From the IMG/VR virus record IMGVR_UViG_3300047095_000811, positions 64,001 to 128,000 of that record: DNA of 64,000 bases; one strand, 5' to 3'. Below, piece by piece: positions 3,657 through 36,067 of this stretch. Both the position numbers and the translations under genes were made by a program. The stretch is from a virus. The first letter of the stretch is position 1; each line of letters opens with the position of its first letter. The notes beneath the pieces were generated by a model. That model searched no databases, was not told the DNA's origin, and was given only the letters and a program-made list of their open reading frames with translations.

Positions 3657-6095
3657 ATGGCAAAGAAAGATGAAACAAGGCTCCCGCTGAAGGTGAGCCA
3701 GTCCGCCCTCAAGGCTCTTGACCGCATGAAGAAGAGCACCGATACGATCGTGTCCGTGCAATCCGGAGTGACTAAAGAGCTGATGAAGGCGGGTAGCGCA
3801 CTGGACGAGCTCAACCAGAGCATCAACCGGAGCGTCCTCAAGACTTACAACAACTTCGTCGGTCTAGGTCAAGATTTCAATGCGCAGGAAGTCAATCAGA
3901 TCCTCGCGCTGACCCAGAAGAACGCGACTCAGAAGAAGACCGACATGAAGAAGGTCGTCGCCGACTTCAAGAAATCGGTCCAGAGCAACGAGCAGACTCA
4001 AGAGCTGCTCAAGTCTCGCAAGGAGTACAAGGCGAGCCTCTACAGTTCGTACGACCTGATCGTCAGCATCATCCCGAAGATGAGACTGGCGCTGAACACG
4101 ATCACGAACAGCATCATTTCTCCGGATGACTTCTCGAAGCGTTCGATGTCGATCTACTTCGACGACAAGAATCTCGCTCCGCAAGATGCCGAAGAAATTC
4201 GTCGCCGCATGCAGCGCCTGATGGAGAAGTACGGCATCGAGAAGGACCTCAAGGAGGACGTCGTCGATACGCTGGTGAAGGGAGAGAAGTTCTGGGCGAT
4301 TCTGTCCATGAACGAGGAAATCAAATCTCTCCTCAAGGAAAGCGCGACCGAGAAGAACGGAGGGTATCACACCCTTGAAGGGACTTGCTCCTCGATGCTG
4401 AACGAGCACGTCGCCACGGTAGAAGAGACCTGTCTCCTCGACGAGGGCGTCTACCTCTTCTCGGAAGACAAGAGCAAGGCCGACCGCAGTAAGTTCGCCA
4501 GAGATCTCGACGATTTCATCGCCGATAACCTCGTCATCGGGTCTTCCACTCAGTTCCTCGCCGAGCACCAGTCTCTGACGGAAGAGCTTGAGAACTCCGC
4601 AGTCCTCAAGAGCACCCACGAGATGAGAGCTTCCGACCAGACGAAGCGCGAAGGAGACGTGCCGGACACCGCGATCGACGGCCTCCGTTTGGCCTCAGAC
4701 AACGCCATCCTGAAGAAGCTGAAGGCAGACCACGTCGTCAAGCTCGAATACGATGACCGAGTTTATGGTTATGTCTACGTCGATGCCATTGCCATCGACG
4801 AGAAGGATAAGACCGGAAAAGTCAAGAACTCGCCAGCAGAACAAGCCGGGAGCGATCAGAATCTGGTCACTGCCGGGGTGCAGGGCGTACTGTACTCGTC
4901 CTCCGACATCGACAAGGGCGTCACCGGCGAGAAGCGGGCGGTCATCAACGATCCGAAGCTGAAGTACATCGCAGACGTGTTCGTCAACCGTCTGTCGAAG
5001 AAGGAGAACATCCGCCTGCTCAAGAAGTCTGAGCAGCTGAAGCATGCGATCTACCACTCCTTGATCACCAAGCGGATCACGAAGGACGAGAAGATCCGCG
5101 TCGTGTTCTTCACTCCGGACGAGGTTGTCCACATCGACCGCAAGGAATCGATCTTCGACAACGTACTCTTCTTCGCCAAGTTGTACATCGCTACCCTGAT
5201 CACGATCCTGATGCAGAACATCGTTCGTGGCGCGGACAAGCGGGCGTACTACATCGATATCGGTCTGGAGAACGATGCAGCTAACGCCATCAACGGCGTC
5301 ATCCGAGACATCAAGTCCAAGGACCTGACGAACGTTCACAACATGGACATGACGTCCATGCTGAACATCCTCGGCGACTTCAACGACTACTACATCCCCT
5401 CCATCGACGGCGAGAAGCCGATCGAGATCAGCACCGTGGACGGGCTGCAGAATATCTCCCTCGACAACGAGTTCCTGAACTGGTTGTCCAACAACATCTT
5501 CTCTGGGATCGGCCTGCCTGCCGCGTACCTGACCGAAGTCGACAACGTGGACTTCGCCAAGGCGCTCTCCATGCAGAACGCTCGCTTCATCCGCGACATC
5601 GTCTCCGAACAGAACACGTTCGGTTACGGTTACTCGGAGCTCCTGAAGAAACTGTACATGAAGGAGTTCGCAGCAGAGCTCTCCAGCAAGGGCAATGATG
5701 ATGACTCCAACGGCAAAGAGAAGACCACGACTCGTCTCTTCGACGTAGACTCGATCGAGGCGAGGTTCCCCTCCCCGGTGAGCCTGAACATGACCAACCT
5801 CAACGACCAGATCGGCAACCTCACGACGCTGATCGATGCGCTGTCGGAGGTCATTGACGTCAAGTCCGAAGACAAGGACGCTGCGACACCCATCTTCAAG
5901 CGCGAGATGTTCCGCAAGTATCTGCCCAACGTCAACTGGGAGGATGTGGACGGAATCGTCGCGAAGGTGAAGAAGGAGATCCTCACGTCCAAGATCAAGG
6001 CAAAACAGCCCGAAGGCGACGGTTCGGAAGAACCCGACGCTCCTGACGCCACCAGTGCGCCTAGTACCGACGTCAGCATGGACGACATGGAGTAA
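3657..6095 (+). CDS. portal protein
   Basis: 812 aa; RGADKRAYYIDIG, DYYIPS and GLPAAYL segments resemble the T4 gp20-type portal (RRxFYIDVG, EDYWLP, LxVPxSR). Confidence 0.8.
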   Translation: MAKKDETRLPLKVSQSALKALDRMKKSTDTIVSVQSGVTKELMKAGSALDELNQSINRSVLKTYNNFVGLGQDFNAQEVNQILALTQKNATQKKTDMKKVVADFKKSVQSNEQTQELLKSRKEYKASLYSSYDLIVSIIPKMRLALNTITNSIISPDDFSKRSMSIYFDDKNLAPQDAEEIRRRMQRLMEKYGIEKDLKEDVVDTLVKGEKFWAILSMNEEIKSLLKESATEKNGGYHTLEGTCSSMLNEHVATVEETCLLDEGVYLFSEDKSKADRSKFARDLDDFIADNLVIGSSTQFLAEHQSLTEELENSAVLKSTHEMRASDQTKREGDVPDTAIDGLRLASDNAILKKLKADHVVKLEYDDRVYGYVYVDAIAIDEKDKTGKVKNSPAEQAGSDQNLVTAGVQGVLYSSSDIDKGVTGEKRAVINDPKLKYIADVFVNRLSKKENIRLLKKSEQLKHAIYHSLITKRITKDEKIRVVFFTPDEVVHIDRKESIFDNVLFFAKLYIATLITILMQNIVRGADKRAYYIDIGLENDAANAINGVIRDIKSKDLTNVHNMDMTSMLNILGDFNDYYIPSIDGEKPIEISTVDGLQNISLDNEFLNWLSNNIFSGIGLPAAYLTEVDNVDFAKALSMQNARFIRDIVSEQNTFGYGYSELLKKLYMKEFAAELSSKGNDDDSNGKEKTTTRLFDVDSIEARFPSPVSLNMTNLNDQIGNLTTLIDALSEVIDVKSEDKDAATPIFKREMFRKYLPNVNWEDVDGIVAKVKKEILTSKIKAKQPEGDGSEEPDAPDATSAPSTDVSMDDME

Positions 6096-6135
6096 AAGTG
6101 AAGCCCCCTTACGGATTGACCGTAAGGGGGATTTT
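6095..6135. terminator. bidirectional intrinsic terminator
   Basis: 11-bp stem CCCCCTTACGG/CCGTAAGGGGG flanked by A and T runs. Confidence 0.75.
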
Positions 6136-6230
6136 CACAGAGATTCTTGGCAGGATTGGCAGATCGGAAGTGACGGAAAGGTAGTCGTCTATGAATTTGG
6201 CCGACAACGCCAATTTCTGCTTCGTATCTC
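6095..6230 (-). ncRNA. candidate late small RNA 1
   Basis: AACA-N6-TA on the minus strand at 6231-6242, about 130 nt with two hairpins and no ORF, ending in the 6104-6130 terminator. Confidence 0.45.
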
Positions 6231-6268
6231 TATCAGGATGTTCGAATATCCCAACCGACCGTAGTGAC

Positions 6269-6312
6269 AAAAAAGAACCTCAATGGCCCCGAAGGACCAT
6301 TGAGGGTTCTTT
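6269..6312 (-). terminator. terminator of the sheath-tube operon
   Basis: AAAGAACC(C)TCAATGG inverted repeat with a T run on the minus strand. Confidence 0.75.
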
Positions 6313-6323
6313 CCGCGCCTCGA

Positions 6324-7106
6324 TTAGGCCGAAGGAACGCTGGAAGCGTATTCGGACAGGTTGAGGAAGTCGTTCTCGTTGTAGAACTTGTACACCTTGG
6401 AGGTGCTCATCTGGGCGGCTGCGAATGCTTCCACAGCTTGACCGAAGTTCATGTAACCCTTGAACTCCTGCTCGTTCTCAGCGAATTCGTGCGAGCCGGA
6501 TTCGTAGTTGAAGTGTTGCAGGAAGATCTTGGTCGGCATGACGTGGGTGAACAGACAAGCGAACTCGATGTTCGACTTGTCAGCGCCGACGCCGAAGTTG
6601 TCGGCGTCAGGACGGGTCACCACGTAGAGCAGGATGCCGGTGTGGTTGTTGGAGTGGTAAGGCACGTTGTGCTTCTTCGGGTACGTCGCGATGCCGGTCT
6701 TCGGATCGCGGATACCAGAGGTCCACTCGTTGTAGTACTTGGTGATCGGAGCGCCAGACTGCTCTTGGTACTTCAGGGTGAAGCCCTCGGCCTTCTGCAT
6801 GGTGCCCTTCGCGAACGACAGTTCGTTGTTCGTGAAGCCAGCGGTGATCGCGCCGGTATCCAGTTGGATGTCGGACAGACCGCTGAAAGCCTTGAAGTTG
6901 CGCTCGGTCAGCTGCTTGAATTCGGCACCGTTGTCGGCACCGATCCAGTCAGGGACTTTGATCCACTTGATGAAAGCGTAACCGGAAACGTACGGGTCCT
7001 TCATGTTGGCCCCGTGATGAACGTGACCGTTGAAGAACGACTCCTGAGACGGAGTCACGGTGTGGTTCGTCAGGTTCGGTTCGCGGATGAGGTTGGTGTT
7101 TGCCAT
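6324..7106 (-). CDS. tail tube protein
   Basis: 260 aa directly downstream of the sheath; YYNEWxSGIRDPKTG resembles gp19-type tube proteins. Confidence 0.7.
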   Translation of the reverse strand: MANTNLIREPNLTNHTVTPSQESFFNGHVHHGANMKDPYVSGYAFIKWIKVPDWIGADNGAEFKQLTERNFKAFSGLSDIQLDTGAITAGFTNNELSFAKGTMQKAEGFTLKYQEQSGAPITKYYNEWTSGIRDPKTGIATYPKKHNVPYHSNNHTGILLYVVTRPDADNFGVGADKSNIEFACLFTHVMPTKIFLQHFNYESGSHEFAENEQEFKGYMNFGQAVEAFAAAQMSTSKVYKFYNENDFLNLSEYASSVPSA

Positions 7107-7132
7107 AGCTTATTCCTTATCTCTCGACCAGA

Positions 7133-9169
7133 TTAGCGGTTCACGACGAAGTCGATGAAGATACGCTCGATCAGACCGGTGAAGATCATGTCCACGCGAA
7201 CGCGGGCAATCTTCTGTTGACGGTCGTAGTCGGAGGCGTAGACAGCACCGGAGATGGTCTTGCAGGTCCTGTTGGAAACCCACTTCTGCAGGTAGCTGTT
7301 CAGGTTGTAAGACATCGACTCGTGGGTGATCGCGTCGTTGAACTCGTCGCGGTACTCGTCCATCATCGCTTCGACGTCACGCTTGATGCGCATCAGCGCA
7401 CGGACGTTGTTGATGTTGGACAGAGCAGAGTTGACGGTCTGCGCAGTCAGCTGCGTACCGAAGTTGATGCGCTTCGGATCCTTCTCGACGTAGTTGACCT
7501 GCGCCTTGTAGAGGGATTCCTTCCACATCTCGTTCGGGAAGAAGTTGATCTGGTCGAAGCCGGAGATCGTGCCACGGCGGGGGCCGGTGAAGGACCACTG
7601 GACGCCAAACTGCTCGTCGTTTGCCGGAATCTTCTTGGCCAGGAAGTAGGTCATGGTGACCTTGATGTTCTGGCCGGTGTACTCGTCGTAAACCACCGCG
7701 TCTTGGCCGAAAATGGCAGTGCGGAAGTTGGACATGGAGATGGAACCGTGGCGGAAGTCGATCGTCTGCTGGGCGGTCGCTTGGAAGCCGCAGTCGAGGA
7801 TTGCCACGCAGTCTTCGCGCATCACGTCTGCGAACTCGGACATCGCGTTCTTCACGGAAGCCGGGTTGTTGCCGTCGAGCAGCACGTCGAAGAGGTACTG
7901 TTTCTTGTCGAGGATCACGCTGTCGATCTCGGCTTTGTAAGCCTTGTTCAGCAGGGACTCTTCGCTGAAGTCAGCGATCTGAACCCACAGAGCCGGGTTG
8001 GCACCAGTCGGATCGGCAGACTTGTCGTACACCGGACCCCAAGTGCCGTCGTGGCCACCCATCAGGTAGCAGACGTCGGACAGATCGGGAGCGAAAGACA
8101 GAGTCTTCCAGTTGTCCTGATAGTCTTCCGGGTTCGGCACGTCGACGTTGTTGACCTTGGGAGTCGCGAACTTGACGCCTTGGTTGTGGTGGATGGCGGC
8201 AGCGGTGAAGGACGGGGAGGCAGTGCCTTGGCCGGACGCATACACTTGAACGCCAGAACGCTCCTTGCCGAAGAAGACGTCCAGATGCAGCGGGTTGACG
8301 CCGCTGATGTCGGGATCGTGACCGGCAGTGCCATCAACGCCCATGTCGAAGTCGATGATGAAGGAACGAACTTCCTCCATGCGGTCTTCGTACTCGTCGG
8401 CGATGGCGACCTTCAGGAACTTGGAGTACTTGTTCAGCACGTTTGCGAAGAACAGGGACTCGCGGCTGCGATCCTTGGCGGTCTTCTCGAAGGAGACCGT
8501 GTAGGGACCGTCGACAACCACGTCAGCGCCGGTGATGTCCTTGGCGGTGATTTCCAGACCGTAGGTACGGAAGTCGTACGTATTGTCCAGACCGTCCTTC
8601 ACGGACAGGCGGATGCCCATCTTGTTGTACGCCTTGCCACGACCGTACGGGTAGAACACGGCCAGCGGGTACACCTTGGTGGTGGAGGGAACGGGATGGC
8701 CGGTGCCGAGCACGTCGGTCATGGCGGAGGTGTTCGCCATATCCGGTGCGGTGTTGACCAGAGTCTCCATCGCTTCCAGACTAGCGGCGGAAGTGCCGAC
8801 AGTGTTCTTGGAACCGACGTTGGAGATCAGAGGAACAACGGTTTTGGAACCGTTCACGTTGTCCAGACCGAGGGACAGGACGATGTTGGAGTACTCTGCA
8901 TCACCCGGCAGAACACGGATGAAGTAAGCCTCACCGCCTGCGCCCAGCCAGTTGTACACGTTGTACATGGACTGGCCGGTGATCGGCATGTTGGGTTCGC
9001 CGAAGATGAACTTGGCTTCATCCTTGGTGGTGAGTCTTGTCAGAATGTTGTCAGGGCCTTTCACGGCCTTGCCGCATGCGAAAAGAACCGTCGTACCCGC
9101 CGCAGTCTGGAAGACGAACGAGTTGTCGATGATTCTCGAATGCACTGACGGATGCAAATATTCAGGCAT
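7133..9169 (-). CDS. contractile tail sheath protein
   Basis: N-terminal YLHPSVHSRIIDNS and KGP; C-terminal GPRRG, LSNINNVRALMRIKR and IERIFIDFVV are typical of sheath proteins. Confidence 0.88.
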   Translation of the reverse strand: MPEYLHPSVHSRIIDNSFVFQTAAGTTVLFACGKAVKGPDNILTRLTTKDEAKFIFGEPNMPITGQSMYNVYNWLGAGGEAYFIRVLPGDAEYSNIVLSLGLDNVNGSKTVVPLISNVGSKNTVGTSAASLEAMETLVNTAPDMANTSAMTDVLGTGHPVPSTTKVYPLAVFYPYGRGKAYNKMGIRLSVKDGLDNTYDFRTYGLEITAKDITGADVVVDGPYTVSFEKTAKDRSRESLFFANVLNKYSKFLKVAIADEYEDRMEEVRSFIIDFDMGVDGTAGHDPDISGVNPLHLDVFFGKERSGVQVYASGQGTASPSFTAAAIHHNQGVKFATPKVNNVDVPNPEDYQDNWKTLSFAPDLSDVCYLMGGHDGTWGPVYDKSADPTGANPALWVQIADFSEESLLNKAYKAEIDSVILDKKQYLFDVLLDGNNPASVKNAMSEFADVMREDCVAILDCGFQATAQQTIDFRHGSISMSNFRTAIFGQDAVVYDEYTGQNIKVTMTYFLAKKIPANDEQFGVQWSFTGPRRGTISGFDQINFFPNEMWKESLYKAQVNYVEKDPKRINFGTQLTAQTVNSALSNINNVRALMRIKRDVEAMMDEYRDEFNDAITHESMSYNLNSYLQKWVSNRTCKTISGAVYASDYDRQQKIARVRVDMIFTGLIERIFIDFVVNR

Positions 9170-9247
9170 AGTTTCTTTCCTTAAGTGAGAAAGTGTGCAT
9201 AGCTTCCGAAGCCCTTGCACAATGTCAAAGGTTTTGGGATAGCCTTC

Positions 9248-9259
9248 TAAGTAGTTGTT
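9248..9259 (-). promoter_or_regulatory. putative late promoter (sheath)
   Basis: AACAactactTA. Confidence 0.7.
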
Positions 9260-9272
9260 TGGGAGGACCCTG

Positions 9273-9971
9273 TCAATATTTGAGGATCTTCTCTACCGGC
9301 GAGATGATCTGGTCCTTTTCGCCGCGAGACATGATGACTGCGGACTGCAACGACTTATTGATGTCTTCGAAGGAGATTGCGTTGAAGACGGAGGTGACGC
9401 GGGAGATCTCCTTGATCGAGATGAGCTTGAAATCCTTCGGCGAAACGCTCTTGTCCTTCAAGGCGAGGCGGAGAGGCTTCGTCTCATCCTTGTCCCAGCG
9501 GACCAACTCGGACGTGATAGCTTCGATGACGACCGGCTGAGACGCTACACGGGTGTCGTTCATCTGAGCGTTCTTGGAGAACAGGCCGATCAGCTCTTCC
9601 GGAGAATTCACGTTGATCTTTGCGGCGATCAAGTAGTTTAGGAACTTATTGACCGAATCGACCCGCTTGAAGTACGTGGTCGACTCGATGATTACGTCTT
9701 CCGGTTCGAACGTCACGTACTTCCCTTCGGAGTCGTCGGTGGCATTGAACGCGTTGATTTTGATGACAACAGGAAGGTTGACCTGATAGTCTTTGTACTT
9801 GGCGAAAGAGGCGTCGTCCGAGACCCTCATCACGAAGAAGCCGAGAGTCTGGATGTCGGTGTCGATCACCTCTGCCAGTTCATCCTCGAACATCTGCTTC
9901 GAGATGATCACTCGGATGTACTTCTTCGCGATCACCTTGTTGTCTTTCTGCTCTATGAAGGGAAACTTCAT
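9273..9971 (-). CDS. multisubunit RNA polymerase beta-prime C-terminal fragment (probably virion RNAP)
   Basis: IEAITSELVR...SVFNAISFEDINKSLQSAV aligns with the RpoC C-terminal HIEVIVRQM...SFISAASFQETTRVLTEAA; AAGGA RBS; late promoter at 9993-10004. Confidence 0.65.
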   Translation of the reverse strand: MKFPFIEQKDNKVIAKKYIRVIISKQMFEDELAEVIDTDIQTLGFFVMRVSDDASFAKYKDYQVNLPVVIKINAFNATDDSEGKYVTFEPEDVIIESTTYFKRVDSVNKFLNYLIAAKINVNSPEELIGLFSKNAQMNDTRVASQPVVIEAITSELVRWDKDETKPLRLALKDKSVSPKDFKLISIKEISRVTSVFNAISFEDINKSLQSAVIMSRGEKDQIISPVEKILKY

Positions 9972-10035
9972 CTTGAATTCCTTACAGTGATCTAGGTAGA
10001 TGTTCCCGTATGGCGTTAACCATACGGGAGACACA

Positions 10036-11381: not shown

Positions 11382-11383
11382 TT

Positions 11384-13444: not shown

Positions 13445-13500
13445 GGTTACTCCGAAAAAAAAAGAGGACACTATCTAAGTGTCCTCTTTCTCGCAGAGGT

Positions 13501-13746: not shown

Positions 13747-13760
13747 CTCTGGTCTCCTTC

Positions 13761-15101: not shown

Positions 15102-15159
15102 TGTAAGAAAAATCACCGGACATTACTATAGTACGGTGATTTTTTTTTGAGAGGTTATC

Positions 15160-22229: not shown

Positions 22230-22344
22230 GATAGATACTCCTCTCGATGTGTTCACACTAAATTATTATTCGAGAGATGGCGATTTTGCAAAAAAGAACC
22301 CATGCCGCCTTGCGGGCAGCATGGGTTTAATGGGTTTTTCGCAA

Positions 22345-22902
22345 CTACTCTGTCATGCTGTCGAAGTGGTCTTCAAGATCCTCTTGGTCGATGATTTTCT
22401 GATCAGCTTCTTCGGAGACTCCGACTACCTGGATCAGGTCGATCCCGTGGTCGAGAAGCATGTCGTGGGACATACCGTTCTTAAACTCTTCGATGTAGTA
22501 GATGCGCTTCACCTTCGCCCTGATGAGCCTTGCGGCGCATCGGGTGCAGGGCGAATGGGTGATGTAGAGGGTGGCTCCCTCCAGCGACCTTCCGATCTCT
22601 GCGGCTCTCTGAAGCACTTCGTCTTCTGCGTGGAGCGTGGAGTCTTTGGTCTTCCCGTTGAGGTCAACCGTGTAGGGGTCTCTGGAGTCCACGTTGTGGT
22701 TGAAGCCATACCCGAGAACGTTACCGTTCCGGTCCACTGCCACGGCTCCGACTTGCTTGTCAGGAGCCGGAGAGCGGGACGCGATCTGCATCGCAACGTT
22801 CAGCCACACGCGCAGTGCGCTCGAAGGCTTTCTGTACCGGACGATCGGAGGGGCTTCCTGCAGATCTTCGTTTTCTTCAATTACGTGGTAGTCGTTTTCC
22901 AC
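22345..22902 (-). CDS. dCMP deaminase
   Basis: QVGAV, GFN, HAE and HSPCTRC zinc motifs. Confidence 0.85.
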   Translation of the reverse strand: MENDYHVIEENEDLQEAPPIVRYRKPSSALRVWLNVAMQIASRSPAPDKQVGAVAVDRNGNVLGYGFNHNVDSRDPYTVDLNGKTKDSTLHAEDEVLQRAAEIGRSLEGATLYITHSPCTRCAARLIRAKVKRIYYIEEFKNGMSHDMLLDHGIDLIQVVGVSEEADQKIIDQEDLEDHFDSMTE

Positions 22903-27689: not shown

Positions 27690-30600
27690 ATGATGGTTTC
27701 AATGGAAAAGATCATCCCGAACAAGATCTACTTCTCGTCTTCTCTCCAGATCAATGTGGAAAAGGAAGGGAAGTACATCCTTACTTCGACGGATCCAGAG
27801 GATCCACAAAGACTGAAGTCCTTGACGGACTCCATGAAATTCGTGCCTCAAGGGAAGATGTACCTGTACTTCCCAGAGATGCTGCTGAACCCGGCGACTC
27901 TCGCTTCGATCAGCTCCACCAAGGAACGCAACGACTTCTTCAAGGACATCGCAGAGATCAACCTCGGCCATCAGGCCACCAAGGTCATGAAGCTCTCCGA
28001 TCTCTCTCAGGAGCAGAAGAGTGACAACCATCCGCTGGTCGTCAACGTCGGCGGGTACTTCTCCAAGCTGGACTCGTACATCTCGGTCCACAAGAAGACC
28101 CCTCAGCAGAAGTACGCTTACCTCAAGCTCGTACTGAAGAAGATCCTGGCAGACACCGCGAGGGACATCCCGGAAGGCAAGAAGACGCTGGTCGTGGACA
28201 TCCAAGGTAACAGCCCGAGAATCGACCCGGTGCTGTTCACCATCGTATACGGCCTGAAGAAGGACTTCGAGGGGTGCTCCGGTATCTTCTCCGGAGTGGA
28301 CGTGATCTTGGTCGATCCCGACCACAACCTCTTCGTCAAACTGAATCTGACCGACCGCAAGAAAGCCATCCAGTCGGTGAACCTGTCTGCGAAGATGGCT
28401 GCTCTCAGCAAGTCGTTCGATCCCAAGAAGGTCATCACCGACAAGGACGTCCAAGTCGGCGACACTGTGGTATCAGACGACGCCGAAGTGATCGGATCCA
28501 CCGAAGAGACCCCGATCGACAAGACCGGAGAGGTCACCAATCAGGAAGCTGCCAAGGCTTCCGAACAGACCAAGGAAGAAGCAGACCACACTGACGTGGA
28601 CGGCGTATCCCGAGTCGAAGACCTCGATCTCAGCGAGATCATGGCGACCGACACCTCTGCCGAGTTCGACCGGCTCGAAAAGGAGAACGCCGAGTTTGTG
28701 GCAAAGTTCAAGCCGCAGCAGGACAAAGCCTTCGGCGACGTCCAGAAGAGGGAAGAAGACTTCGTTCTCCATGTGGAATCGGCAAAGGACGACGCGGTAC
28801 TCAACCCGAGCATCAAGACCGCCAAGACGGTGGCCCTGACCAACTCCTACCACAAGAACCTCTTCAGGAAGGATGTTGCCTCCCTCCTCCAGTCCCTCAA
28901 TAACGACTCAGAATTCCCTGCCGTCGTGATCTCGCACGAGATGAAGGACTCTTCGGACCCGCTGAACCTGAAGGACGAGCTTTCCGTCGTCTTCATGGAC
29001 AAGCAGGGTAAGAAGCACAACTTCACTGTTGACGTTCCCAAACTGTCCTCCGACGGCTTCCTGTACATCAACGGCAATAAAAAGTTCATCGCCAAGCAGA
29101 CGACGCTTTTGCCGCTCATCAAGGAAGCTCCCGACCGAGTCCAGATCACCACGTCGTACTCGAAGACCTTCTTGTACCGCAAGGGCGACAAGACTAACCC
29201 GATGATCGACAGGATCTTTAAGACTCTCATCGGTAAGTCGTACACCGGGGTGAAGCCCATGTACGGCAATTCCTTCGCGTCCAACATCAAGTACGGCGTC
29301 AGTATCCCCTACAACTACCTCTCGAAGCGTCTCTTCACGCTCAGCTTCGATCTGGGAGCGAAGGCTTCTCTGGACTTCCACTTCAGCCAGAAGCGGATCC
29401 GTTCGGTGATGGAGGATGCCGGGATGTCGATCCCGGAAGGGAAGCTGCCGGTTGCACTGCGGATGATGAACGGCAAGATTGATGCGGTCTACTTCGAGGA
29501 TGCGTCCACCAGAAAGGTGGAGCAGGTCAGCGGCAAGACGGTCATGAAGACCTATCAGAACCTGCAGGACCTGCTCGTCGAGACGATCAGGAACTACAAG
29601 AACACCGACGTCCTGAAGGCTTTCGAGGCCACCAATGCAGGCAAGGCGTACAGCTACACCGACATCAAGCTCGCCGGGACCAGCGTCCCTCTGGGCATCC
29701 TCGTCAGCTTCTACCAAGGTCTGCTTCCAGCTCTCGACGGGTACGGCATCAAGTACACCGTCTCCGCTGAGAAGCGCCGTGCTGCAGAGAACGAGACTCT
29801 CATCCAGTTCAAGGACATGAATGTGTACCTGAATCTGGAAGGGGATACTGCTAAGGAGCTCTTTGCCAACGGTCTGTACTTCCTGAATACCAAGGAGTTC
29901 TCCTACCGGGACGCTGAGCGTCGTGGGTCTGTGTTCATCGAGTACTTCGGAGAGGCAATCGGATCCCGCAACATCGCCAAGGCATACATCAACTTCGAGA
30001 CCTCGATGATCGACCCGATCACGAAGGAGATCCTCATCGATCTGAAACTGCCAACGGAGTTCGTCCCTCTGCTTTACAAGGCGAACGACATGCTGGCGGG
30101 GTACTCCCACAAGCGCAAGAACGACATGACGAACTTCCGGGTCAGAGACTCTGAGGTGCTGTCCGTGGCGATCTACGACGTACTCATGAAGTCCTTCAAC
30201 GAGTACAAGCGCACCGTGAAGACCGGCGTGGTGACTCCGATCTCTGCGCCGAAGGACGCCGTGGTCAAGAAGGTGCAGGCTCTCCCGAACGTGGAGGACT
30301 ATTCGGTTCTGTCTCCGTTCCTCGAAATGGAGCTGAAGTCCAAGACGACATTCAAAGGTCCGTCCGGCCTCAACAGCTCCGACGCCTACACCGCCGAGAT
30401 TCGTTCTTACGATCCGTCGATGATCGGCCTGTTCGGCATCTTCTCCCCGGTCTCCGGGGAGATCGGCGTCAACCGCTCTCTGGTGCTGAACCCGAAGATC
30501 CGAAACAACCGTGGGTACCTCGACCATCCGGACGTGGACTCGATGAACATGGACAACCTGTTCGCCTCCGGCGAGCTGCTGAACCTGTTCTCCGCGAACC

Positions 30601-31805
30601 ACTCCGACCCGATGCGTACCGGCATGGCTACCACTCAGGGCAAGCACATCGTCTCGACGAAGGTGCAGCACAACTACCTGATCGGTACCGGTCTCGACAA
30701 GACCATCTCCCAGCTCATCGGGCAAGATTTTGCCTGGAAGGCGGCGGAGGACGGCGAGATCGTCAAGATCGACCAGCGGAACAAGCTCGTCTTCGTGAAG
30801 TACAAGACCGGGCAGACTACCGCGATCGACGTCAGCGACAAGCCCGCCAAGAACTCTTCTTCCGGCTTCTGGATCAAGAACAAGCTCGAACTCATCGATG
30901 GCCTGAAGGTCGGCTCCAAGTTCAAAAAGGGTCAGACCCTAGCTACTAACCGCAGCTTCTTCCGGCAGGACATGGACGGATCCCACGGATTTGCCCCCGG
31001 AAGGCTCACGAAAGTGGCGATGATGTGCCTCCCAACCACTTACGAAGACTCCGCCCCTGTCATCGAAAAAGTGGCAAAGGAGATGGCTTCCGACATCATC
31101 ACCGAGAAGCAGGTGGCGCTGAAAGAGAACTCCAAGATCATCAAGATCGCCAGCGAAGGCCAGAAGCTCAACGTCAACGACCCCCTCATCATCTTCGAGG
31201 AGATCGGCGACAGCGAGAAGGATGCCCTGAGCGCGATCGAGAAGGCGGCTAAAGCTGCCGAGGGAGACGAGGACTTGGAGCACCTCGGAAGAAACATCAT
31301 CAAGTCGAAGTACTCCGGTACGATCACCAACGTCAAAGTCTACTACAACTGCGACTTGGAGTCCGACGCGATCCACCCGACTCTGAAGGAGTACGTCAAG
31401 GGGTACATCTCCAAGGTGAAGTCCCGCTCCGACGCTCTGAAGGGTAACAAGGAGGACGACCTGATCGAGATGCCGTCCATCGAGCGCATCGACTCTGACA
31501 AGATCCTCGGCAACGAGATGTCTGGCGTCCTGATCGTGTTCTACATCGCACACGAGGAGAAGATGGACGTTGGCAACAAGCTGGCATTCTTCTCAGCCTG
31601 TAAAGGGATCGTCTCGGAAGTCATTCCTGACGACTTGGCTCCTCTGACGGAGTACCGAGAGGAAGAGCCTATCGAGGCGGTCGTCTCTCCGATGTCTTTG
31701 ATCTCTCGTAACACTCCTGACCTTCCGCTCATGGGGTTCTCCAACAAGGTGATCCTTGAGCTGAAGAAGCAGTGTATCGAAGAGCTCTTCGGCGACAAGA
31801 AGTAA
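27690..31805 (+). CDS. multisubunit RNA polymerase beta subunit (probably virion RNAP)
   Basis: GFLYING, TFKGPSG, DPMRTGMATTQGKH, YEDS, VGNK...KGIVS, VSPMSLISRN correspond to conserved RpoB regions. Confidence 0.9.
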   Translation: MMVSMEKIIPNKIYFSSSLQINVEKEGKYILTSTDPEDPQRLKSLTDSMKFVPQGKMYLYFPEMLLNPATLASISSTKERNDFFKDIAEINLGHQATKVMKLSDLSQEQKSDNHPLVVNVGGYFSKLDSYISVHKKTPQQKYAYLKLVLKKILADTARDIPEGKKTLVVDIQGNSPRIDPVLFTIVYGLKKDFEGCSGIFSGVDVILVDPDHNLFVKLNLTDRKKAIQSVNLSAKMAALSKSFDPKKVITDKDVQVGDTVVSDDAEVIGSTEETPIDKTGEVTNQEAAKASEQTKEEADHTDVDGVSRVEDLDLSEIMATDTSAEFDRLEKENAEFVAKFKPQQDKAFGDVQKREEDFVLHVESAKDDAVLNPSIKTAKTVALTNSYHKNLFRKDVASLLQSLNNDSEFPAVVISHEMKDSSDPLNLKDELSVVFMDKQGKKHNFTVDVPKLSSDGFLYINGNKKFIAKQTTLLPLIKEAPDRVQITTSYSKTFLYRKGDKTNPMIDRIFKTLIGKSYTGVKPMYGNSFASNIKYGVSIPYNYLSKRLFTLSFDLGAKASLDFHFSQKRIRSVMEDAGMSIPEGKLPVALRMMNGKIDAVYFEDASTRKVEQVSGKTVMKTYQNLQDLLVETIRNYKNTDVLKAFEATNAGKAYSYTDIKLAGTSVPLGILVSFYQGLLPALDGYGIKYTVSAEKRRAAENETLIQFKDMNVYLNLEGDTAKELFANGLYFLNTKEFSYRDAERRGSVFIEYFGEAIGSRNIAKAYINFETSMIDPITKEILIDLKLPTEFVPLLYKANDMLAGYSHKRKNDMTNFRVRDSEVLSVAIYDVLMKSFNEYKRTVKTGVVTPISAPKDAVVKKVQALPNVEDYSVLSPFLEMELKSKTTFKGPSGLNSSDAYTAEIRSYDPSMIGLFGIFSPVSGEIGVNRSLVLNPKIRNNRGYLDHPDVDSMNMDNLFASGELLNLFSANHSDPMRTGMATTQGKHIVSTKVQHNYLIGTGLDKTISQLIGQDFAWKAAEDGEIVKIDQRNKLVFVKYKTGQTTAIDVSDKPAKNSSSGFWIKNKLELIDGLKVGSKFKKGQTLATNRSFFRQDMDGSHGFAPGRLTKVAMMCLPTTYEDSAPVIEKVAKEMASDIITEKQVALKENSKIIKIASEGQKLNVNDPLIIFEEIGDSEKDALSAIEKAAKAAEGDEDLEHLGRNIIKSKYSGTITNVKVYYNCDLESDAIHPTLKEYVKGYISKVKSRSDALKGNKEDDLIEMPSIERIDSDKILGNEMSGVLIVFYIAHEEKMDVGNKLAFFSACKGIVSEVIPDDLAPLTEYREEEPIEAVVSPMSLISRNTPDLPLMGFSNKVILELKKQCIEELFGDKK

Positions 31806-31810
31806 CGAGG

Positions 31811-31860
31811 TGTGGGTAATGGTCGAAATGACCATTACCCACATCACATTTTTCATTTTT
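31811..31860 (+). terminator. intrinsic terminator
   Basis: TGTGGGTAATGGTC/GACCATTACCCACA 14-bp stem plus T runs. Confidence 0.75.
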
Positions 31861-31904
31861 AGTACTCCTGACTGCCACAACTCAGTGATAGAAAGGAGTC
31901 CACG

Positions 31905-32111
31905 ATGAACAGAAACAACATGCTCAAGGCGATGATGCTGACCGCGCTAGTGGTCAGAAGAAACCAAGCAGAGGACGATCTCTGCCAAGCAGTCGCCGGT
32001 ACCAGAATCCAAATCGGAGGAAACAAAAGACAAGTTTCCGACGGCAACACATTCAAGTTCAATCTTCCTTTCGAGAAGGGAAGAAGGACGCCGAAATGCA
32101 AGAAAAATTAA
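31905..32111 (+). CDS. small basic protein with FKFNLxFEKG motif
   Basis: 68 aa, AAAGGAG RBS, AACT-N6-TA upstream, terminator downstream. Confidence 0.55.
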   Translation: MNRNNMLKAMMLTALVVRRNQAEDDLCQAVAGTRIQIGGNKRQVSDGNTFKFNLPFEKGRRTPKCKKN

Positions 32112-32260
32112 TGATAACCCCTACTGCCACATAGCAGTAGGGGTCTTTCATCGTTTCGAGGTTATCACACTTCCGGACGCTAATCTTGTCCTTACCAGTT
32201 CGGGGTCCACCTAGCATATCGGTTGCTAGTGCTACTACCTCCACCTGAATTGTGCCTCAG
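32110..32260 (-). ncRNA. candidate late structured small RNA 2
   Basis: AACA-N6-TA at 32261-32272 on the minus strand; several hairpins; ends in the 32117-32144 hairpin. Confidence 0.45.
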
Positions 32261-32270
32261 TATAGATATG

Positions 32271-32819
32271 TTAGTATTTTCGGCTGTCGTAAGCCCACTG
32301 TAGCAGGGCCTGACGCTGTACGGGACGGCAAGTGGCATCCCCTTTCTTGCAGTTCTTGGTGAGCTGCGCCTTGTGCCTCACAAAAGACTTCCAGCGGGCG
32401 CACTGTTTTGCATCGACCTTCTCGTCGCGGCGTCCCATGTACGCCCGACAATACCACTGGAACCATCCGCGAGGGTCGTCGCCCACGATCCACCCTTGCT
32501 TCCTCCAGTGCGACAGCGGCTTTCTGGATTTCACCTTGAAGTAGTTCAGCTCAGGATCAGCATCTCCGCCATCCTTCACCACCTTGGCACCACTGAACCA
32601 AGAAGAGGGGAACTCTCCGTGGCAATCGTTGAGGTACTTACCTTCGAAGACACCGAGAGCCAGCATCTCTTTTGGAGTCAGCTCAGGGTCGAAGCCATAT
32701 TTCTCCTTCAAGTCAGAGAGGTCGCCTTCCTTGACAGTCAGCTCATAAGAGTAACCCTTCTGCATCTTGTCGCTAACCTTGACGGTCTTTCGTTTACCTT
32801 CAAGAAGAATGAATTTCAT
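32271..32819 (-). CDS. conserved uncharacterised protein (DPRGWFQWYCR family)
   Basis: LTPKEMLALGVFEGKY, DPRGWFQWYCR..GRR, RQALLQWAYD. Confidence 0.75.
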   Translation of the reverse strand: MKFILLEGKRKTVKVSDKMQKGYSYELTVKEGDLSDLKEKYGFDPELTPKEMLALGVFEGKYLNDCHGEFPSSWFSGAKVVKDGGDADPELNYFKVKSRKPLSHWRKQGWIVGDDPRGWFQWYCRAYMGRRDEKVDAKQCARWKSFVRHKAQLTKNCKKGDATCRPVQRQALLQWAYDSRKY

Positions 32820-32882
32820 GTTTTCCCCAAGAAAAAAGTACACACTAAGGAAAAGTTAGAGGGGCGCAGAGGCCCCTCCTCC

Positions 32883-33548
32883 TTACTTCCGATGACGGAA
32901 GGAAACCCGCTTGTCGAAGCCGTGCTGCACCAGCCGGTCTGTATCCGAGATCTTCACAGGCGGGTCCATGTCCGGAGACGGATAGATCACGTTGCCCATG
33001 AAGTAAGAAATCTCTTGGTACAGAGAGTTCTGATCGATGATCTTAGAGACCCCGAGCTCCGACAAGACAGGCATCTTGTTAGAGATTCGGAATTGAGTCT
33101 TCCGGTTCCCGTAATTGACTTGGATGCTACTCACCCGAAAGATGGGCTGCTTCAAGATACGGCTGAGTTCAACCAGCATTGGATGCGTCCCTCCGTCGAA
33201 GAAGCGCATGTCGAGCTCTCTCAGAAAGTACTTGGATCTTACGAATCTGATCGACTCGTCAGTAGTGAGTACTCTCACTTCGTCTGGAAGACCGGAGCCG
33301 AACTCGGCCTGCTTGATCTTCATGAGATGAGGCTTCCCGCAGATCGACAGCAGCTCGGTCCGAGTCCTCGAATGGAAGTCGCTGTGGGTCGAGAGGGGGA
33401 AGTTTCCGTTCATCTCAATTTGGATGTCGCGATAGTCCGGTTCCTCCAGCTTGATGAGCGCCGGTCGTTCGTAGACCACCTTCGGGTCGATCCCGTAGAC
33501 GTTCGAAATGTGGTCGTAGTAGTCTCTGAATTTGGAGATGATTCTCAT
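32883..33548 (-). CDS. conserved phage hypothetical protein
   Basis: MRIISKFRDYYD...HGFDKRVSFR termini. Confidence 0.75.
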   Translation of the reverse strand: MRIISKFRDYYDHISNVYGIDPKVVYERPALIKLEEPDYRDIQIEMNGNFPLSTHSDFHSRTRTELLSICGKPHLMKIKQAEFGSGLPDEVRVLTTDESIRFVRSKYFLRELDMRFFDGGTHPMLVELSRILKQPIFRVSSIQVNYGNRKTQFRISNKMPVLSELGVSKIIDQNSLYQEISYFMGNVIYPSPDMDPPVKISDTDRLVQHGFDKRVSFRHRK

Positions 33549-33787
33549 TGCTTCTTCCTCACAATCTTGTAGTCGTTCGGAGCGTACTTGTTGTACAGCT
33601 CATCGGCTTCCTCTTGTCCGACCAGCGCAGTGTACTTCTTCATCAAACCGCTGATCTTGTCTGCGTGAGCTTGACCTCGACGCCATGTGCCGCCGTCATC
33701 GCTGTAGTTGTAGTACCAGTCATGCCGAGACAGGCTCTCTTCGAGTTCTTTCCTGACCAGCAGGACATCATCTTTCTCGTTGCTCAT
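33545..33787 (-). CDS. small conserved phage protein
   Basis: HDWYYNYSDD motif; coupled to neighbours. Confidence 0.7.
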   Translation of the reverse strand: MSNEKDDVLLVRKELEESLSRHDWYYNYSDDGGTWRRGQAHADKISGLMKKYTALVGQEEADELYNKYAPNDYKIVRKKQ

Positions 33788-34193
33788 TTCTCTTCCTTTC
33801 AACATAGGACTTTAGGACTCCGTCCGTCGGTTCAAAGTCCATCTTTCCCTCTACGAAAATCCGGTACGACTCTAGGGCATACCAGCCGATTCCATGCATC
33901 TTGCTCAGTTCGTCTATGCTTGACGGCGGATTGGCTACCCACTCCGCAGCTAGGCGGATTATCATTTTCGATCGCCGGTTCATCAATCCTAGCGACCTGA
34001 TCGTCTCCACCATCTTCGGCAGGTCTTCTTCCTTCACACATTTGGGAGTAGGCCAATGTCGGAAGAACTCATCTACTACGCTCTTTACCTGCTCACCAGT
34101 GGTCCTGTTCAACAGGATGCTACTGATGACTACCCGCCAAGCATCGCCGTGATAACTCTCTTGAACTAACTTGTATTCGGTATTGCGTCGCAT
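33768..34193 (-). CDS. MBD4-like HhH DNA glycosylase
   Basis: W..VISSILLNRT, SLGL..RR, HGIGWYALESYRIF, PTD match the MBD4 catalytic domain (LNRT, PLGL, HGIGKYGNDSYRIF, PED). Confidence 0.85.
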   Translation of the reverse strand: MRRNTEYKLVQESYHGDAWRVVISSILLNRTTGEQVKSVVDEFFRHWPTPKCVKEEDLPKMVETIRSLGLMNRRSKMIIRLAAEWVANPPSSIDELSKMHGIGWYALESYRIFVEGKMDFEPTDGVLKSYVERKRNEQRER

Positions 34194-34306
34194 GGTTGTC
34201 CTCCTTACCATATGACACCGCATCTCTCGGCGTTATCCTTCCGCCACGCTAATGATATATCAAGAAAAAAAGATTCGAGCGAACTCGAATCTTTTCTCCT
34301 GCATCC

Positions 34307-34444
34307 TTACCACTGGAACCACCACTGGCAGAAAGAGTATGTAAATGCCGAGAAGGTGACAATGGAAACACCGATCGTCATGCGGGTGTTGAAACGTTCG
34401 GTTTCAGCCTCGCGACGGGGGCTGTAAGAGTAGTGGACGTTCAT
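34307..34444 (-). CDS. 45-aa single-TM peptide (not in ORF track)
   Basis: MNVHYSYSPRREAETERFNTRMTIGVSIVTFSAFTYSFCQWWFQW*; GGAG RBS, AGATATAAT upstream, terminator 34263-34296. Confidence 0.6.
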   Translation of the reverse strand: MNVHYSYSPRREAETERFNTRMTIGVSIVTFSAFTYSFCQWWFQW

Positions 34445-34547
34445 TTCGGTTCTCCAATTAGAAGGTTGATATCACAAGAATTATATCTGCCGGACTGGGT
34501 TGCAGATACGGGAACACAGAAATAGCTAACTTACAAGGAGAGCTGTA

Positions 34548-34907
34548 ATGGAAAAAATCATCATTCTTCTCATGCAATCTCGTACCCTTGTCCACACGTA
34601 CCACCTGAAGGCGAAGAATCTTGCTCCTCATCTGGCACTCGACGAGCTGTACAACGCGCTGACCGACCACATCGACGATCTCACCGAAGTGTATCAGGGC
34701 TTCGCGGAGCGTCTGCTCGATCTGAATTCCTATCCGGGTTTCACCGTAGACGACGACCCTCTCGGCCAAGTGAGAGAGATCGCCAGTGCCATCGAATCGA
34801 TGAGAAACCAAATCACCCCCAACTGTTCGACGATCCAGAACATGATCGACGAAGCACTTCAGACTCTGTACAAGACCAAGTACAAGCTGATGTTCCTGCC
34901 GATCTAA
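34548..34907 (+). CDS. ferritin/Dps-like protein
   Basis: HxxH...HLALDELY...IDDLTEVYQG...IQNMIDE four-helix metal-binding pattern; late promoter 34513-34524. Confidence 0.75.
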   Translation: MEKIIILLMQSRTLVHTYHLKAKNLAPHLALDELYNALTDHIDDLTEVYQGFAERLLDLNSYPGFTVDDDPLGQVREIASAIESMRNQITPNCSTIQNMIDEALQTLYKTKYKLMFLPI

Positions 34908-34960
34908 GAAAAAAAAAGAACCCTACCGCGATGGTAGGGTTCTTTCACGCTCTATAGGAG

Positions 34961-35299
34961 CTACGACGCCGCAAGCGCCTGTCGGTCGTTCTTGAGAACT
35001 TCCCGGAGCGCATTGGCGATGTCGGTCGGGCTGACTTGTTGGGCGGGGCGCGGTTCTTGAGTCTGCTCCCAAGGCATTCCACGAGTCAGATCCTCGTAAA
35101 CCTTGTTGATGCCAGTCTCATTGACGAAAGCATACGCTTCGTCGACCGAATTAAATTGTCGCGGTTCCACCGTCCCATCTTCCTTCTTCATCTTTACCAC
35201 CGTCCAGGTTGCGAAAACCACGAAGTGATTCTTCATGAATTCGATTACCCAGTGACCGTTTTGATGGTCGAAGGTGATGCGGAAAGCGCGATTCTTCAT
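34961..35299 (-). CDS. hypothetical protein
   Basis: 112 aa, AAGGAG RBS, overlapping early and late motifs at 35347-35362. Confidence 0.7.
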   Translation of the reverse strand: MKNRAFRITFDHQNGHWVIEFMKNHFVVFATWTVVKMKKEDGTVEPRQFNSVDEAYAFVNETGINKVYEDLTRGMPWEQTQEPRPAQQVSPTDIANALREVLKNDRQALAAS

Positions 35300-35420
35300 T
35301 TGAAACTCCTTGCAAAGATACGGTAATCCGGATGGCTACCACGAAAATTATATATCACTGTTGGGAGCTTACTTCCGGTACGGCAACAACACCTTAGACC
35401 TCATAATAAAAGGAAGAACC

Positions 35421-35972
35421 ATGCATAAAGAGCGGACGTTCTCCGAGACTTCACTTGAGCTAGCCGACGAGCTCATGAAAGAGCTCGGAGTCAAAGACAA
35501 GGACGTGCGGCTCATCGATCAGGCGATTGATGAGTGGCAGAACGAGAAGAACTACACGAAGATATCCCTGACATACTACGGAGAGCCGAAGGCTCAGGCC
35601 CGTCCGAGGTCTTCCAGTCAGCACGGCGGGTTCTTCTATGATCCGAGTAAGAGCCTCAAGCAATGGGTGCTCTCTCAGATCGTGGCGCAGCTCCCGCCCA
35701 ATTTCAAGCCCATCGATCGATCCATCGAGGTCACGCTGCGCTTCTACCGGACTATGCCAAAGGGCGGATCCAAGAAGGACAAGATCCTGATGGAGCTCGG
35801 AGTCATCCAGCCTTGCGGTCGTCCCGACATCGACAACTTCATCAAACTCGTTCAAGACGCGCTGAACAAGACGCTGTATACGGACGACTCCAACATAGTC
35901 ACGCTGTACGCCGAGAAGTTCTATTCCTGCAAGCCCAGAGTGGAACTTGACATCAAATTCCGTAAAGCCTAA
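35421..35972 (+). CDS. rusA: RusA-like Holliday junction resolvase
   Basis: GEPKAQARPR, RPDIDNFIK...DAL...DDSNIV. Confidence 0.88.
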   Translation: MHKERTFSETSLELADELMKELGVKDKDVRLIDQAIDEWQNEKNYTKISLTYYGEPKAQARPRSSSQHGGFFYDPSKSLKQWVLSQIVAQLPPNFKPIDRSIEVTLRFYRTMPKGGSKKDKILMELGVIQPCGRPDIDNFIKLVQDALNKTLYTDDSNIVTLYAEKFYSCKPRVELDIKFRKA

Positions 35973-35986
35973 GAAACAACTTGTTA

Positions 35987-36067
35987 GTGTGGGACAGTTG
36001 TTCTGCACTTGCATCATGCTTTGTCCTTTCTTTTCCCCTAACCCTTTGCCGGGTTAGGGGTCTTTTT
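35987..36067 (+). ncRNA. candidate late small RNA 3
   Basis: AACA-N6-TA 35975-35986, about 80 nt, terminator 36034-36067; the next gene has its own GACA-N6-TA at 36077. Confidence 0.4.

Follow-up and report, generated by a model that had tools for sequence, protein, structure and literature searches.

Orphan late promoters in the DNA of an uncultured jumbo phage lead into three short stretches, two of which, on the strength of a layout shared with related phages, look like genuine genes for small late RNAs. The promoters lie in a window of 64,000 nucleotides (nt) comprising bases 64001-128000 of a single 136,853-nt virus contig (IMGVR_UViG_3300047095_000811, here G000), estimated to be 52% complete. 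Three exact copies of the motif AACA-N6-TA, named in the original prediction as the starts of promoter-to-terminator units, are present at 6231-6242 (minus), 32261-32272 (minus), and 35975-35986 (plus), and the stretches into which they point are referred to as units 1, 2, and 3. The distances from predicted start to closing hairpin are approximately 138, 150, and 82 nt, respectively, within the 80-150 nt originally proposed. Units 1 and 3, which lie at the junction of the portal and tail tube genes and at the 3′ end of a RusA resolvase gene, are conserved, free of protein-coding sequence, and keep both promoter and terminator in relatives, and they are probably small late RNA genes as far as sequence comparison can predict. 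The late-expressed RNA layer first proposed is supported for these two units as probable transcription units, whereas unit 2 lacks comparative and structural support.

The source of the window is an uncultured GC-rich (55%) jumbo phage of the AR9/phiR1-37 group. A 1371-amino-acid (aa) RNA polymerase beta-like protein encoded in the window is 39% identical to g099 of the Yersinia phage phiR1-37, the closest cultured relative, and approximately 33% identical to its counterparts in AR9, PBS1, and Staphylococcus jumbo phages. Genes for the portal protein, a virion (tube-like) protein, the tail sheath, and a RusA resolvase are among the gene neighbours in the window. Relatives were collected by portal alignment, which returned 16 viral loci, seven metagenome loci, and none in genome contigs, while a single-protein scan of viral contigs returned no relatives. 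Alignments of the tube, RusA, and 359-aa gene products yielded no further close relative with the unit junctions (the locus L060 ends before the gap), and 10-12 further proteins with 63-70% portal identity were found in ENA/Logan. Two GC-rich relatives, G001 and G002, carry the comparisons below. G002 is a complete 263,413-nt genome with terminal repeats and has a gene (G002:C1:223921-225255, locus L066, minus) whose product is homologous to the non-virion RNA polymerase subunit gp226 of AR9 (29% identity, E 7.8e-37). A gp226 homologue was not found in G000, of which just over half is estimated to be present.

The late promoter motif

According to the main text of the AR9 study, the late consensus of that phage is AACA-(6N)-TA/G, transcription starting at its final base, its late promoters include 13 internal and 7 antisense ones, and transcription stops at predicted intrinsic terminators (Lavysh et al., 2017; PMC5312081). 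The window has 23 copies of AACA-N6-TA, compared with 9.47 ± 3.11 expected, and none of 100 shuffles reaches this count. When TA is followed by G, 20 of the 29 copies in the whole contig fall within the 9.3% of the DNA that is intergenic, and most of these intergenic copies are located 8-150 nt 5′ of the start of a gene on the same strand, including the sheath and other virion genes. The gene calls behind these figures were made with a purpose-written codon-usage script (135 genes in G000 and 284 in G002). Copies of AACA-N6-TA followed by A, C, or T are also enriched between genes (10 of 13 in the contig), and the motif is intergenic in 47 of 83 cases in G002 and 14 of 20 in G001. AACA-N6-TA(G) is accepted as the predicted late promoter of the clade on the grounds of homology and distribution.

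A promoter profile was scored against 65 gene-proximal sites from three genomes. G is the preferred base after TA in the clade and C occurs there in 11% of the gene-proximal sites; units 1 and 3 have the G and unit 2 the C. Unit 1 falls at the 11th, unit 2 at the 2nd, and unit 3 at the 9th percentile of these sites. Mononucleotide shuffles, also applied below to target complementarity, the closing helix, GGA counts, and unit-to-unit pairing, give a chance of 0.006-0.018 per gap for the TAG form of the motif and 0.026-0.061 for the TA form. A related form, GACA-N6-TAG, has three intergenic copies in the window (13471-13483, minus; 15119-15131, plus; 36077-36089, plus), all 0-29 nt before a gene start. 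Judging from these positions and from conservation of the 36077-36089 copy in G002, this form seems to serve as a functional late promoter variant.

Unit 1 at the portal/tube junction

Unit 1 spans 6242 to approximately 6094 on the minus strand, in the gap between the portal gene, which ends at 6095, and the convergent gene for a 260-aa virion protein, which ends at 6324. The hairpins at 6104-6130 and 6278-6305 are both terminator-like on the minus strand, and the promoter is located between them and aimed at the portal-side hairpin. Units 2 and 3, in contrast, are not free-standing gaps, since their promoters overlap or directly follow the stop codon of the upstream gene.

The same two-terminator junction is found in the GC-rich relatives. 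A minus-strand AACA-N6-TAG is present at 6581-6592 in L001 (AACATAAATATAG; portal 69% identical) and in L002/L003 (AACATACCTATAG; portal 57% identical), the latter two being counted as one lineage because they are near-identical. The 260-aa virion protein is 76-81% identical in L001 and L003, and hairpins also occur in both loci at the place matching 6104-6130. Promoter position, strand, terminator, and a helix that closes the RNA from 5′ to 3′ are therefore kept in both of the two GC-rich relatives, while the gap apart from the promoter is barely alignable. The chance of a minus-strand motif is approximately 0.009 per relative gap, which gives a joint chance of approximately 7e-5 for unit 1. 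The expectation that the units would be conserved in relatives is borne out for unit 1 in these two lineages and for unit 3 in one, but for unit 2 in none.

All three unit 1 RNAs (window, G001, and G002) are predicted to fold into a closed imperfect rod followed by the terminator hairpin. In the predicted fold of the window RNA, the 5′ AGAGAU pairs with AUCUCU immediately before the terminator. The z-scores of the body are -3.44, -3.75, and -1.46 in the window, G001, and G002, and each is better than that of the opposite strand.

Unit 3 at the 3′ end of the RusA gene

Unit 3 runs from 35975 to approximately 36072 on the plus strand. Because the promoters of units 2 and 3 are placed at the stop codon of the gene upstream, the RNA of each is at the same time the 3′ untranslated region (3′UTR) of that gene. 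The spacer between the RusA stop codon and the terminator measures 62 nt, and 42 of the 47 terminated genes in the contig have spacers of at most 39 nt. In G002, the promoter AACATCGGGATAG overlaps the RusA stop codon (L019:6013-6025; chance of a motif in that gap approximately 0.012) and is followed by an equivalent hairpin with a T10 run, so that the layout of unit 3 is kept in the one relative that has the junction.

The gene downstream of the terminator encodes a 472-aa protein, and the product of the gene in that position in G002 is a 30%-identical homologue. In G002 this gene, too, is preceded by the block GAAGGACA-N6-TAGA and then a Shine-Dalgarno (SD) sequence, and the block is thus conserved. 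Since the 472-aa gene has this promoter (P2) of its own, the first promoter (P1) and the terminator form a separate unit of 82 nt. Unit 3 would therefore be a 3′UTR-type small RNA with its own promoter, as it starts at the RusA stop codon and shares the RusA terminator.

The predicted fold leaves the tract CAUCAUGCUUUGUCCUUUCUUUU unpaired between a 5′ hairpin and the terminator, and the complement of 36012-36034 reads SD-N6-AUG. The corresponding RNA of G002 has CAUCUUG...UUCCUCUUCUUU with 7-nt spacing. A CAU plus a C/U tract (CAU...CCUYUYUUU), whose complement is an SD sequence, 6-7 nt, and AUG, is accordingly unpaired in the predicted folds of both phages (n = 2). A pyrimidine tract mirroring a ribosome-binding site (RBS) plus AUG is also present in unit 1 (complement of 6175-6193), in agreement with the original prediction that two of the units would carry one.

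Two observations concern the RusA gene itself. Its 220-aa open reading frame (ORF) is over-extended by 37 codons, and the true start is probably ATG 35421, as the first 36 residues of the long ORF are unshared in the alignment with the G002 homologue. The gene is also preceded by back-to-back divergent late promoters, AACAGTGATATA on the minus strand (35351-35362) for a 112-aa gene and AACAACACCTTAG on the plus strand for RusA.

Positions of units 1 to 3 and of the adjoining genes, promoters, and hairpins in the window
Feature	Position	Strand	Remarks
Portal vertex protein gene	3657..6095	+	PHROG portal/virion structural; tblastn to portal vertex proteins of AR9 and Staphylococcus jumbo phages; convergent on unit 1
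Two-way terminator hairpin	6104..6130	-	Portal end on plus, predicted unit 1 RNA end on minus; 11 pairs, 8 GC, tail CTTCACTTTT
Unit 1 RNA body, closed rod-like domain (predicted)	6139..6231	-	Minimum free energy -26.1 kcal/mol, z -3.44
Unit 1 late promoter (predicted)	6230..6242	-	AACATCCTGATAG; predicted start A 6231
Own terminator of 260-aa virion gene	6278..6305	-	Upstream of unit 1 promoter; 12 pairs, tail TTCTTTTTTG
260-aa virion structural gene (probable tail tube)	6324..7106	-	Beside tail sheath gene; phrog_21257, E 9e-83
Hairpin common to 68-aa gene (plus) and unit 2/190-aa gene (minus)	32118..32143	-	10 bp; weak U-tract on both strands; in minimum free energy fold
Unit 2 candidate RNA body	32148..32261	-	3′UTR of 190-aa gene
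Unit 2 candidate late promoter	32261..32272	-	AACATATCTATA(C); overlaps stop codon (32271-32273) of ORF 32271-32843
RusA late promoter (predicted)	35385..35397	+	AACAACACCTTAG; 24 nt before probable true start ATG 35421
RusA-like Holliday junction resolvase gene	35421..35972	+	Pfam RusA E 1.9e-24; PHROG 140; 3′UTR is unit 3
Unit 3 late promoter P1 (predicted)	35975..35987	+	AACAACTTGTTAG; begins 3 nt past RusA stop codon; predicted start A 35986
Unit 3 RNA body (predicted fold)	35986..36034	+	5′ hairpin 35986-36009, then unpaired CAUCAUG...UCCUUUCUUUU
Terminator of RusA and unit 3	36035..36060	+	10 pairs, 7 GC, tail TCTTTTTACT
Second promoter P2 (predicted)	36077..36089	+	GACATCTGTATAG; after terminator, 22 nt before 472-aa gene
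472-aa gene downstream of unit 3	36111..37529	+	No PHROG or Pfam match

Coding potential and known RNA families

The three intervals had been described as holding no credible ORF, and none of them contains an ATG-started or SD-preceded ORF after its predicted start. Unit 1 holds only a TTG frame of 34 codons, without an SD sequence, that runs into the terminator stem. When five ORFs from the intervals were looked up in a collection of 15 billion proteins, none was a called protein; among all seven sequences looked up there, only the neighbouring 68-aa gene (31905-32111) corresponds to one. The window has no Rfam match at the gathering thresholds, and the best matches in the unit regions in E-value mode score 15-18 bits against thresholds of 44-140. 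RNAduplex pairings of the units with the starts of neighbouring genes consisted of unrealistic long-loop duplexes and were set aside. No RNA reads from the units were found: the four sequencing runs compared with 30501-37500 were fragmentary contigs, the two labelled RNA-Seq being probably DNA, and contained no information on transcript starts, ends, or strand.

Unit 2, a weaker candidate

Unit 2 runs from 32272 to approximately 32110 on the minus strand. All three units had been described as closing with strong hairpins, and those of units 1 and 3 are terminator-like in the scan. The unit 2 hairpin at 32118-32143 is strong as well, but it was not terminator-like on either strand in the consensus scan, because the T-run is imperfect, and was taken only by a looser rule. 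The body was also described as multi-hairpin and GGA-rich; neither trait separates it from shuffled sequence, as it folds no better than shuffles (z -0.65) and its 4 GGA in 114 nt compare with 3.11 ± 1.42 expected, 37% of shuffles reaching 4. Units 1 and 3 contain 0 and 1 GGA, respectively. Since the GGA count of unit 2 is what composition predicts, the suggestion that the unit titrates an RNA-binding protein is not supported.

No syntenic relative of unit 2 was found, and G002 has other genes between the RNA polymerase beta and RusA genes. A homologue of the 190-aa protein was found only in an AT-rich relative, without the motif. The only point in favour of unit 2 is the spacer of 125 nt between stop codon and hairpin, the third longest of 47 in the contig. 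Unit 2 would at best be a weaker third member of the 3′UTR type and is unproven. The sole homologue of the 190-aa protein, in L028 (G003:C1:199535-200080), is 57% identical, belongs to a distant relative with 32% GC, and contains one in-frame TAA. Thus, the 190-aa gene looks like a mobile accessory gene that is possibly broken in L028.

Proposed function and alternative explanations

The gene programme of giant phages that have RNA polymerases of their own is independent of the host, and the ways in which these phages time translation and silence early or host messages late in infection are poorly known. It is proposed here that units 1 and 3 each constitute an independent late gene for a short non-coding RNA and that these RNAs most likely act by pairing with translation starts, a reading that is preferred tentatively and given slightly less than an even chance. 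If the two sites fire and the RNAs accumulate, an AR9-type non-virion RNA polymerase would transcribe both units from AACA-N6-TAG, and the transcripts would end at the intrinsic terminators. Unit 1 would yield an RNA of approximately 138 nt whose 5′ end is locked in a long imperfect rod followed by the terminator hairpin, a shape that is expected to be stable. Unit 3 would yield an RNA of approximately 82 nt that begins at the RusA stop codon, shares the RusA terminator, and carries the unpaired C/U tract plus CAU as a mirror of an RBS and start codon. Base pairing with the translation start regions of other messages late in infection would be the likely action; an anti-RBS role is the best guess for unit 3, while another role at the RNA level is possible for unit 1.

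Several results weigh against this proposal. Complementarity to all called phage gene starts (135 in G000 and 284 in G002) is not above that of shuffles, so that the originally suggested shutdown of early mRNAs by antisense pairing finds no support at phage translation starts. The best ungapped complementarity is reached by 5 of 40 shuffles for unit 1 of the window, 22 of 40 for unit 2, and 38 of 40 for unit 3, and by 11 of 40 and 10 of 40 for units 1 and 3 of G002. The G002 unit 1 RNA has a 13-bp match to the start region of the sheath gene that is seen in neither the window nor G001, and complementarity between the units also does not exceed that of shuffles. Neither G001 nor G002, whose sequences were inspected, has the anti-RBS tract plus CAU of unit 1, and the three unit 1 lineages have no shared seed. 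The fold of unit 1 is subject to similar doubts. The G002 body (z -1.46) is not significantly stable, and the closing helix is reached by 5, 20, and 23 of 300 mononucleotide body shuffles in the three lineages under a criterion that was picked after the folds were seen. RNAalifold on the three unit 1 sequences, which include two independent relatives, recovers little besides the terminator. In addition, all orphan promoters score low, five other orphan sites falling at the 9th-29th percentile of the 65 gene-proximal sites. Finally, L004, L005, L022, and L026 (three distinct contigs; portal 36-45% identical) have a portal junction with a single two-way terminator and no unit, and the gap at the portal/tube junction of AR9 is only 51 nt. 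Because these distant relatives and AR9 are without it, unit 1 is, by its distribution, specific to the GC-rich clade.

An insulator role is the main rival for unit 1. It has the units manage transcription at gene ends, with the RNA as a by-product. Transcription from a late promoter aimed at the rear of a terminator would stop read-through from a highly expressed late gene, whether converging or preceding, by blocking it, colliding with it, or pairing with it, and antisense and run-on transcripts would fail to reach the portal, tube, and sheath genes. Two terminators, compared with one in distant relatives, indeed mark the convergent junctions at which unit 1 and a fourth unit (G000:C1:57110-57424, described below) are placed, and the absence of an identified target for an RNA-level role points the same way, as does the AR9 study, whose main text reports abundant late antisense RNA over the sheath gene g126 and the adjoining g125, near the same portal/tube junction (PMC5312081). 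However, two conserved features would be left unexplained, the closed-rod fold of unit 1 and the unpaired CAU plus C/U tract in unit 3, and unit 3 is co-directional with its neighbours and thus has nothing to collide with. On balance, this explanation is considered unlikely. Somewhat less likely still is that the units give no separate transcripts, the motifs being chance or decaying promoter look-alikes and the intervals ordinary spacers or 3′UTRs. Approximately one AACA-N6-TAG is expected in 2 × 12.7 kb of intergenic DNA (a rough estimate from base composition), and this explanation applies above all to unit 2, with its C after TA, its profile score at the 2nd percentile, a hairpin without a canonical U-tract, a z-score of -0.65, and no syntenic relative. 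It fits units 1 and 3 poorly, as their motifs recur with matching strand and position in relatives whose intergenic DNA cannot otherwise be aligned, at the low chances given above (approximately 7e-5 jointly for unit 1 and 0.012 for unit 3), and the intergenic enrichment of AACA-N6-TA followed by A, C, or T also argues against chance.

For unit 3 alone, P1 and the terminator could be the leader and attenuator of the 472-aa gene, as in lambda PR′-tR′; the short RNA would then be the terminated leader, and regulated read-through would add to transcription from P2. The geometry of a late promoter, approximately 50 nt, a terminator, and a late gene is conserved in G002, and Shiga-toxin phages offer a precedent in which the early-terminated RNA of a late promoter is reported to be a regulatory small RNA (PMC7547250). 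Yet the promoter-like GAAGGACA-N6-TAGA lies beyond the terminator in both phages, at 22-25 nt upstream of the start codon, which argues that the 472-aa gene does not depend on P1, and the late promoter upstream of RusA would give the same read-through. Moreover, to our knowledge no antiterminator has been described for AR9-like phages, and an attenuator is regarded as distinctly improbable. Least probable is that the units encode very small proteins, whether as 32-34-aa peptides with TTG starts (unit 1) or as a minus-strand gene read from the RBS plus ATG mirrored in unit 3. The window and G001 versions of unit 1 do share a frame of 33-34 codons that is opened by TTGGCGTTG and whose spacing differences stay in frame (45 compared with 42 nt, and 18 compared with 12 nt), and the complement of unit 3 reads SD-N6/7-ATG in both phages, with a 185-aa ORF antisense to RusA beginning there. 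However, the TTG starts lack an SD sequence, the frames enter the terminator stem, the peptides are dissimilar, that of G002 is unrelated, and no called protein corresponds to any of the ORFs. Codons of the antisense ORF are aligned with those of RusA, as is usual for the shadow frames of GC-rich genes, of which the window has many, and no minus-strand promoter precedes it.

A broader form of the proposal is that AR9-like jumbo phages carry an undescribed general layer of late RNA, made up of clade-specific small non-coding RNAs that the non-virion polymerase transcribes from orphan AACA-N6-TA promoters. When the phage switches to virion assembly, these RNAs would shut off early or host translation or act by binding a protein. 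The stable rod RNA at the portal/tail-tube junction and the 3′UTR-type RNAs with exposed anti-RBS seeds would be examples from the GC-rich, Gram-negative-type branch. A layer of this generality is considered unlikely. Should orphan late promoters mark small RNA genes, AACA-N6-TA plus a terminator would provide a cheap means of finding riboregulators in uncultured genomes, and the portal/tube junction RNA would be a concrete, conserved candidate. Should the units be insulators, they would show how AR9-type polymerases handle converging late operons. In either case, the annotation of the clade gains corrected start codons, the GACA-N6-TAG form of the promoter, and a late promoter upstream of a tRNA cluster.

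Comparison with known systems

The claim that no such RNA layer had been described for this phage group was too strong, in view of ten non-coding RNAs in phiR1-37 and the late antisense RNAs of AR9. The phiR1-37 RNAs, found by RNA-seq, are nine antisense RNAs and one intergenic small RNA, misc_4, which is located between g099 (RNA polymerase beta) and g100 and contains no ORF (Leskinen et al., 2016; PMC4848604). The group is thus known to have discrete non-coding RNAs, one of them intergenic and without an ORF, but misc_4 lies in a divergent gap upstream of the RNA polymerase beta gene, and gene order around the portal differs in phiR1-37. Neither misc_4 nor misc_6 was retained as a counterpart of units 1-3, since their contexts differ, and no sequence or positional homology to the units was found. 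In the main text of the AR9 study, the most abundant late antisense RNAs cover g125 and g126 (PMC5312081); by annotation, g126 is the sheath gene and g125 its neighbour, next to the portal/tube junction. AR9 and the phage of the window share the promoter consensus, the use of late promoters for transcripts other than mRNA, and the ending of transcription at intrinsic terminators. In contrast to the units, the non-mRNA transcripts in that main text come from antisense and internal starts rather than gene-free intergenic promoter-to-terminator units. The window phage is also GC-rich and only 33-39% identical in RNA polymerase beta.

Phage-encoded small RNAs are a kind already known, and units 1 and 3 would probably be new members of it. 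DapZ and MicL of enterobacteria are 3′UTR-derived small RNAs transcribed from a promoter of their own, which lies inside the upstream coding sequence or at its end. Units 2 and 3 and the fourth unit resemble them in that the promoter overlaps or follows a stop codon and the terminator is shared, but DapZ and MicL are host-encoded, driven by sigma factors, and dependent on Hfq, whereas the units have the promoter of a phage polymerase. RsaE/RoxS and LhrC are small RNAs with C/U-rich seeds that mask SD sites. The unpaired C/U-rich tract of unit 3 between hairpin and terminator is similar; however, unit 3 has one tract rather than repeated C-rich loops, and its complementarity to phage targets is not above chance. 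Titrating RNAs of the CsrB/RsmZ type contain many GGA motifs in hairpin loops, in contrast to the composition-level count in unit 2. Lambda 6S RNA is a short terminated late-promoter RNA of a lambdoid phage. With 6S and StxS, unit 3 has in common a late promoter with a close terminator upstream of late genes, and the short RNA of such an arrangement can be regulatory, as reported for StxS (PMC7547250). The difference is the second promoter that follows the terminator in the window.

Further promoter-terminator units and other observations

A fourth orphan late unit is located outside the window, 6.6-6.9 kb before its start (G000:C1:57110-57424, L061:61-375, minus). The TAG of its promoter AACAACTGAGTAG is the stop codon of a 142-aa gene, and approximately 215 nt without a credible ORF follow, with a hairpin of their own and then the two-way terminator of a convergent 527-aa gene. 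G001 has the same layout after an 88%-identical 527-aa gene, with a common CACCAAUAUGCA patch. The unit is absent from G002, where a co-directional gene is found instead.

Other orphan promoters were dismissed as units. The site at G000:C1:22961-22973 (minus) has four tRNA genes downstream (21317-22482, L048:318-1483; Rfam 54-67 bits) and probably drives a tRNA operon with a leader of approximately 480 nt. Because it precedes four tRNA genes, late promoters in this phage probably do drive RNA genes. Most other orphan promoters of G002 precede genes that were missed by the crude gene caller. Two sites in G002 deserve mention. At G002:C1:155840-155880 (minus), a 12-bp terminator hairpin (RNA positions 9-39) comes immediately after the late promoter AACAGTAGTATAG, approximately 165 nt before the next gene, and this may be either a promoter-terminator unit of approximately 40 nt or an attenuator. 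At G002:C1:22800-23148 (minus), the GC-rich sequence downstream of an orphan AACACGGGGCTAG contains no called gene, tRNA, or Rfam match over more than 300 nt. The regions of G002 around 150128, 155868, and 23136 have no counterpart in G000 or G001.

The tail sheath gene of the window probably starts at ATG 9169 rather than GTG 9220 (region 9140-9260, minus). The window, G001, and G002 hardly differ in the start region of this gene, CACUUUCUC...AAGGAAAGAAAC-AUG, which can adopt a fold with the SD sequence paired and may be a conserved hairpin for translational control.

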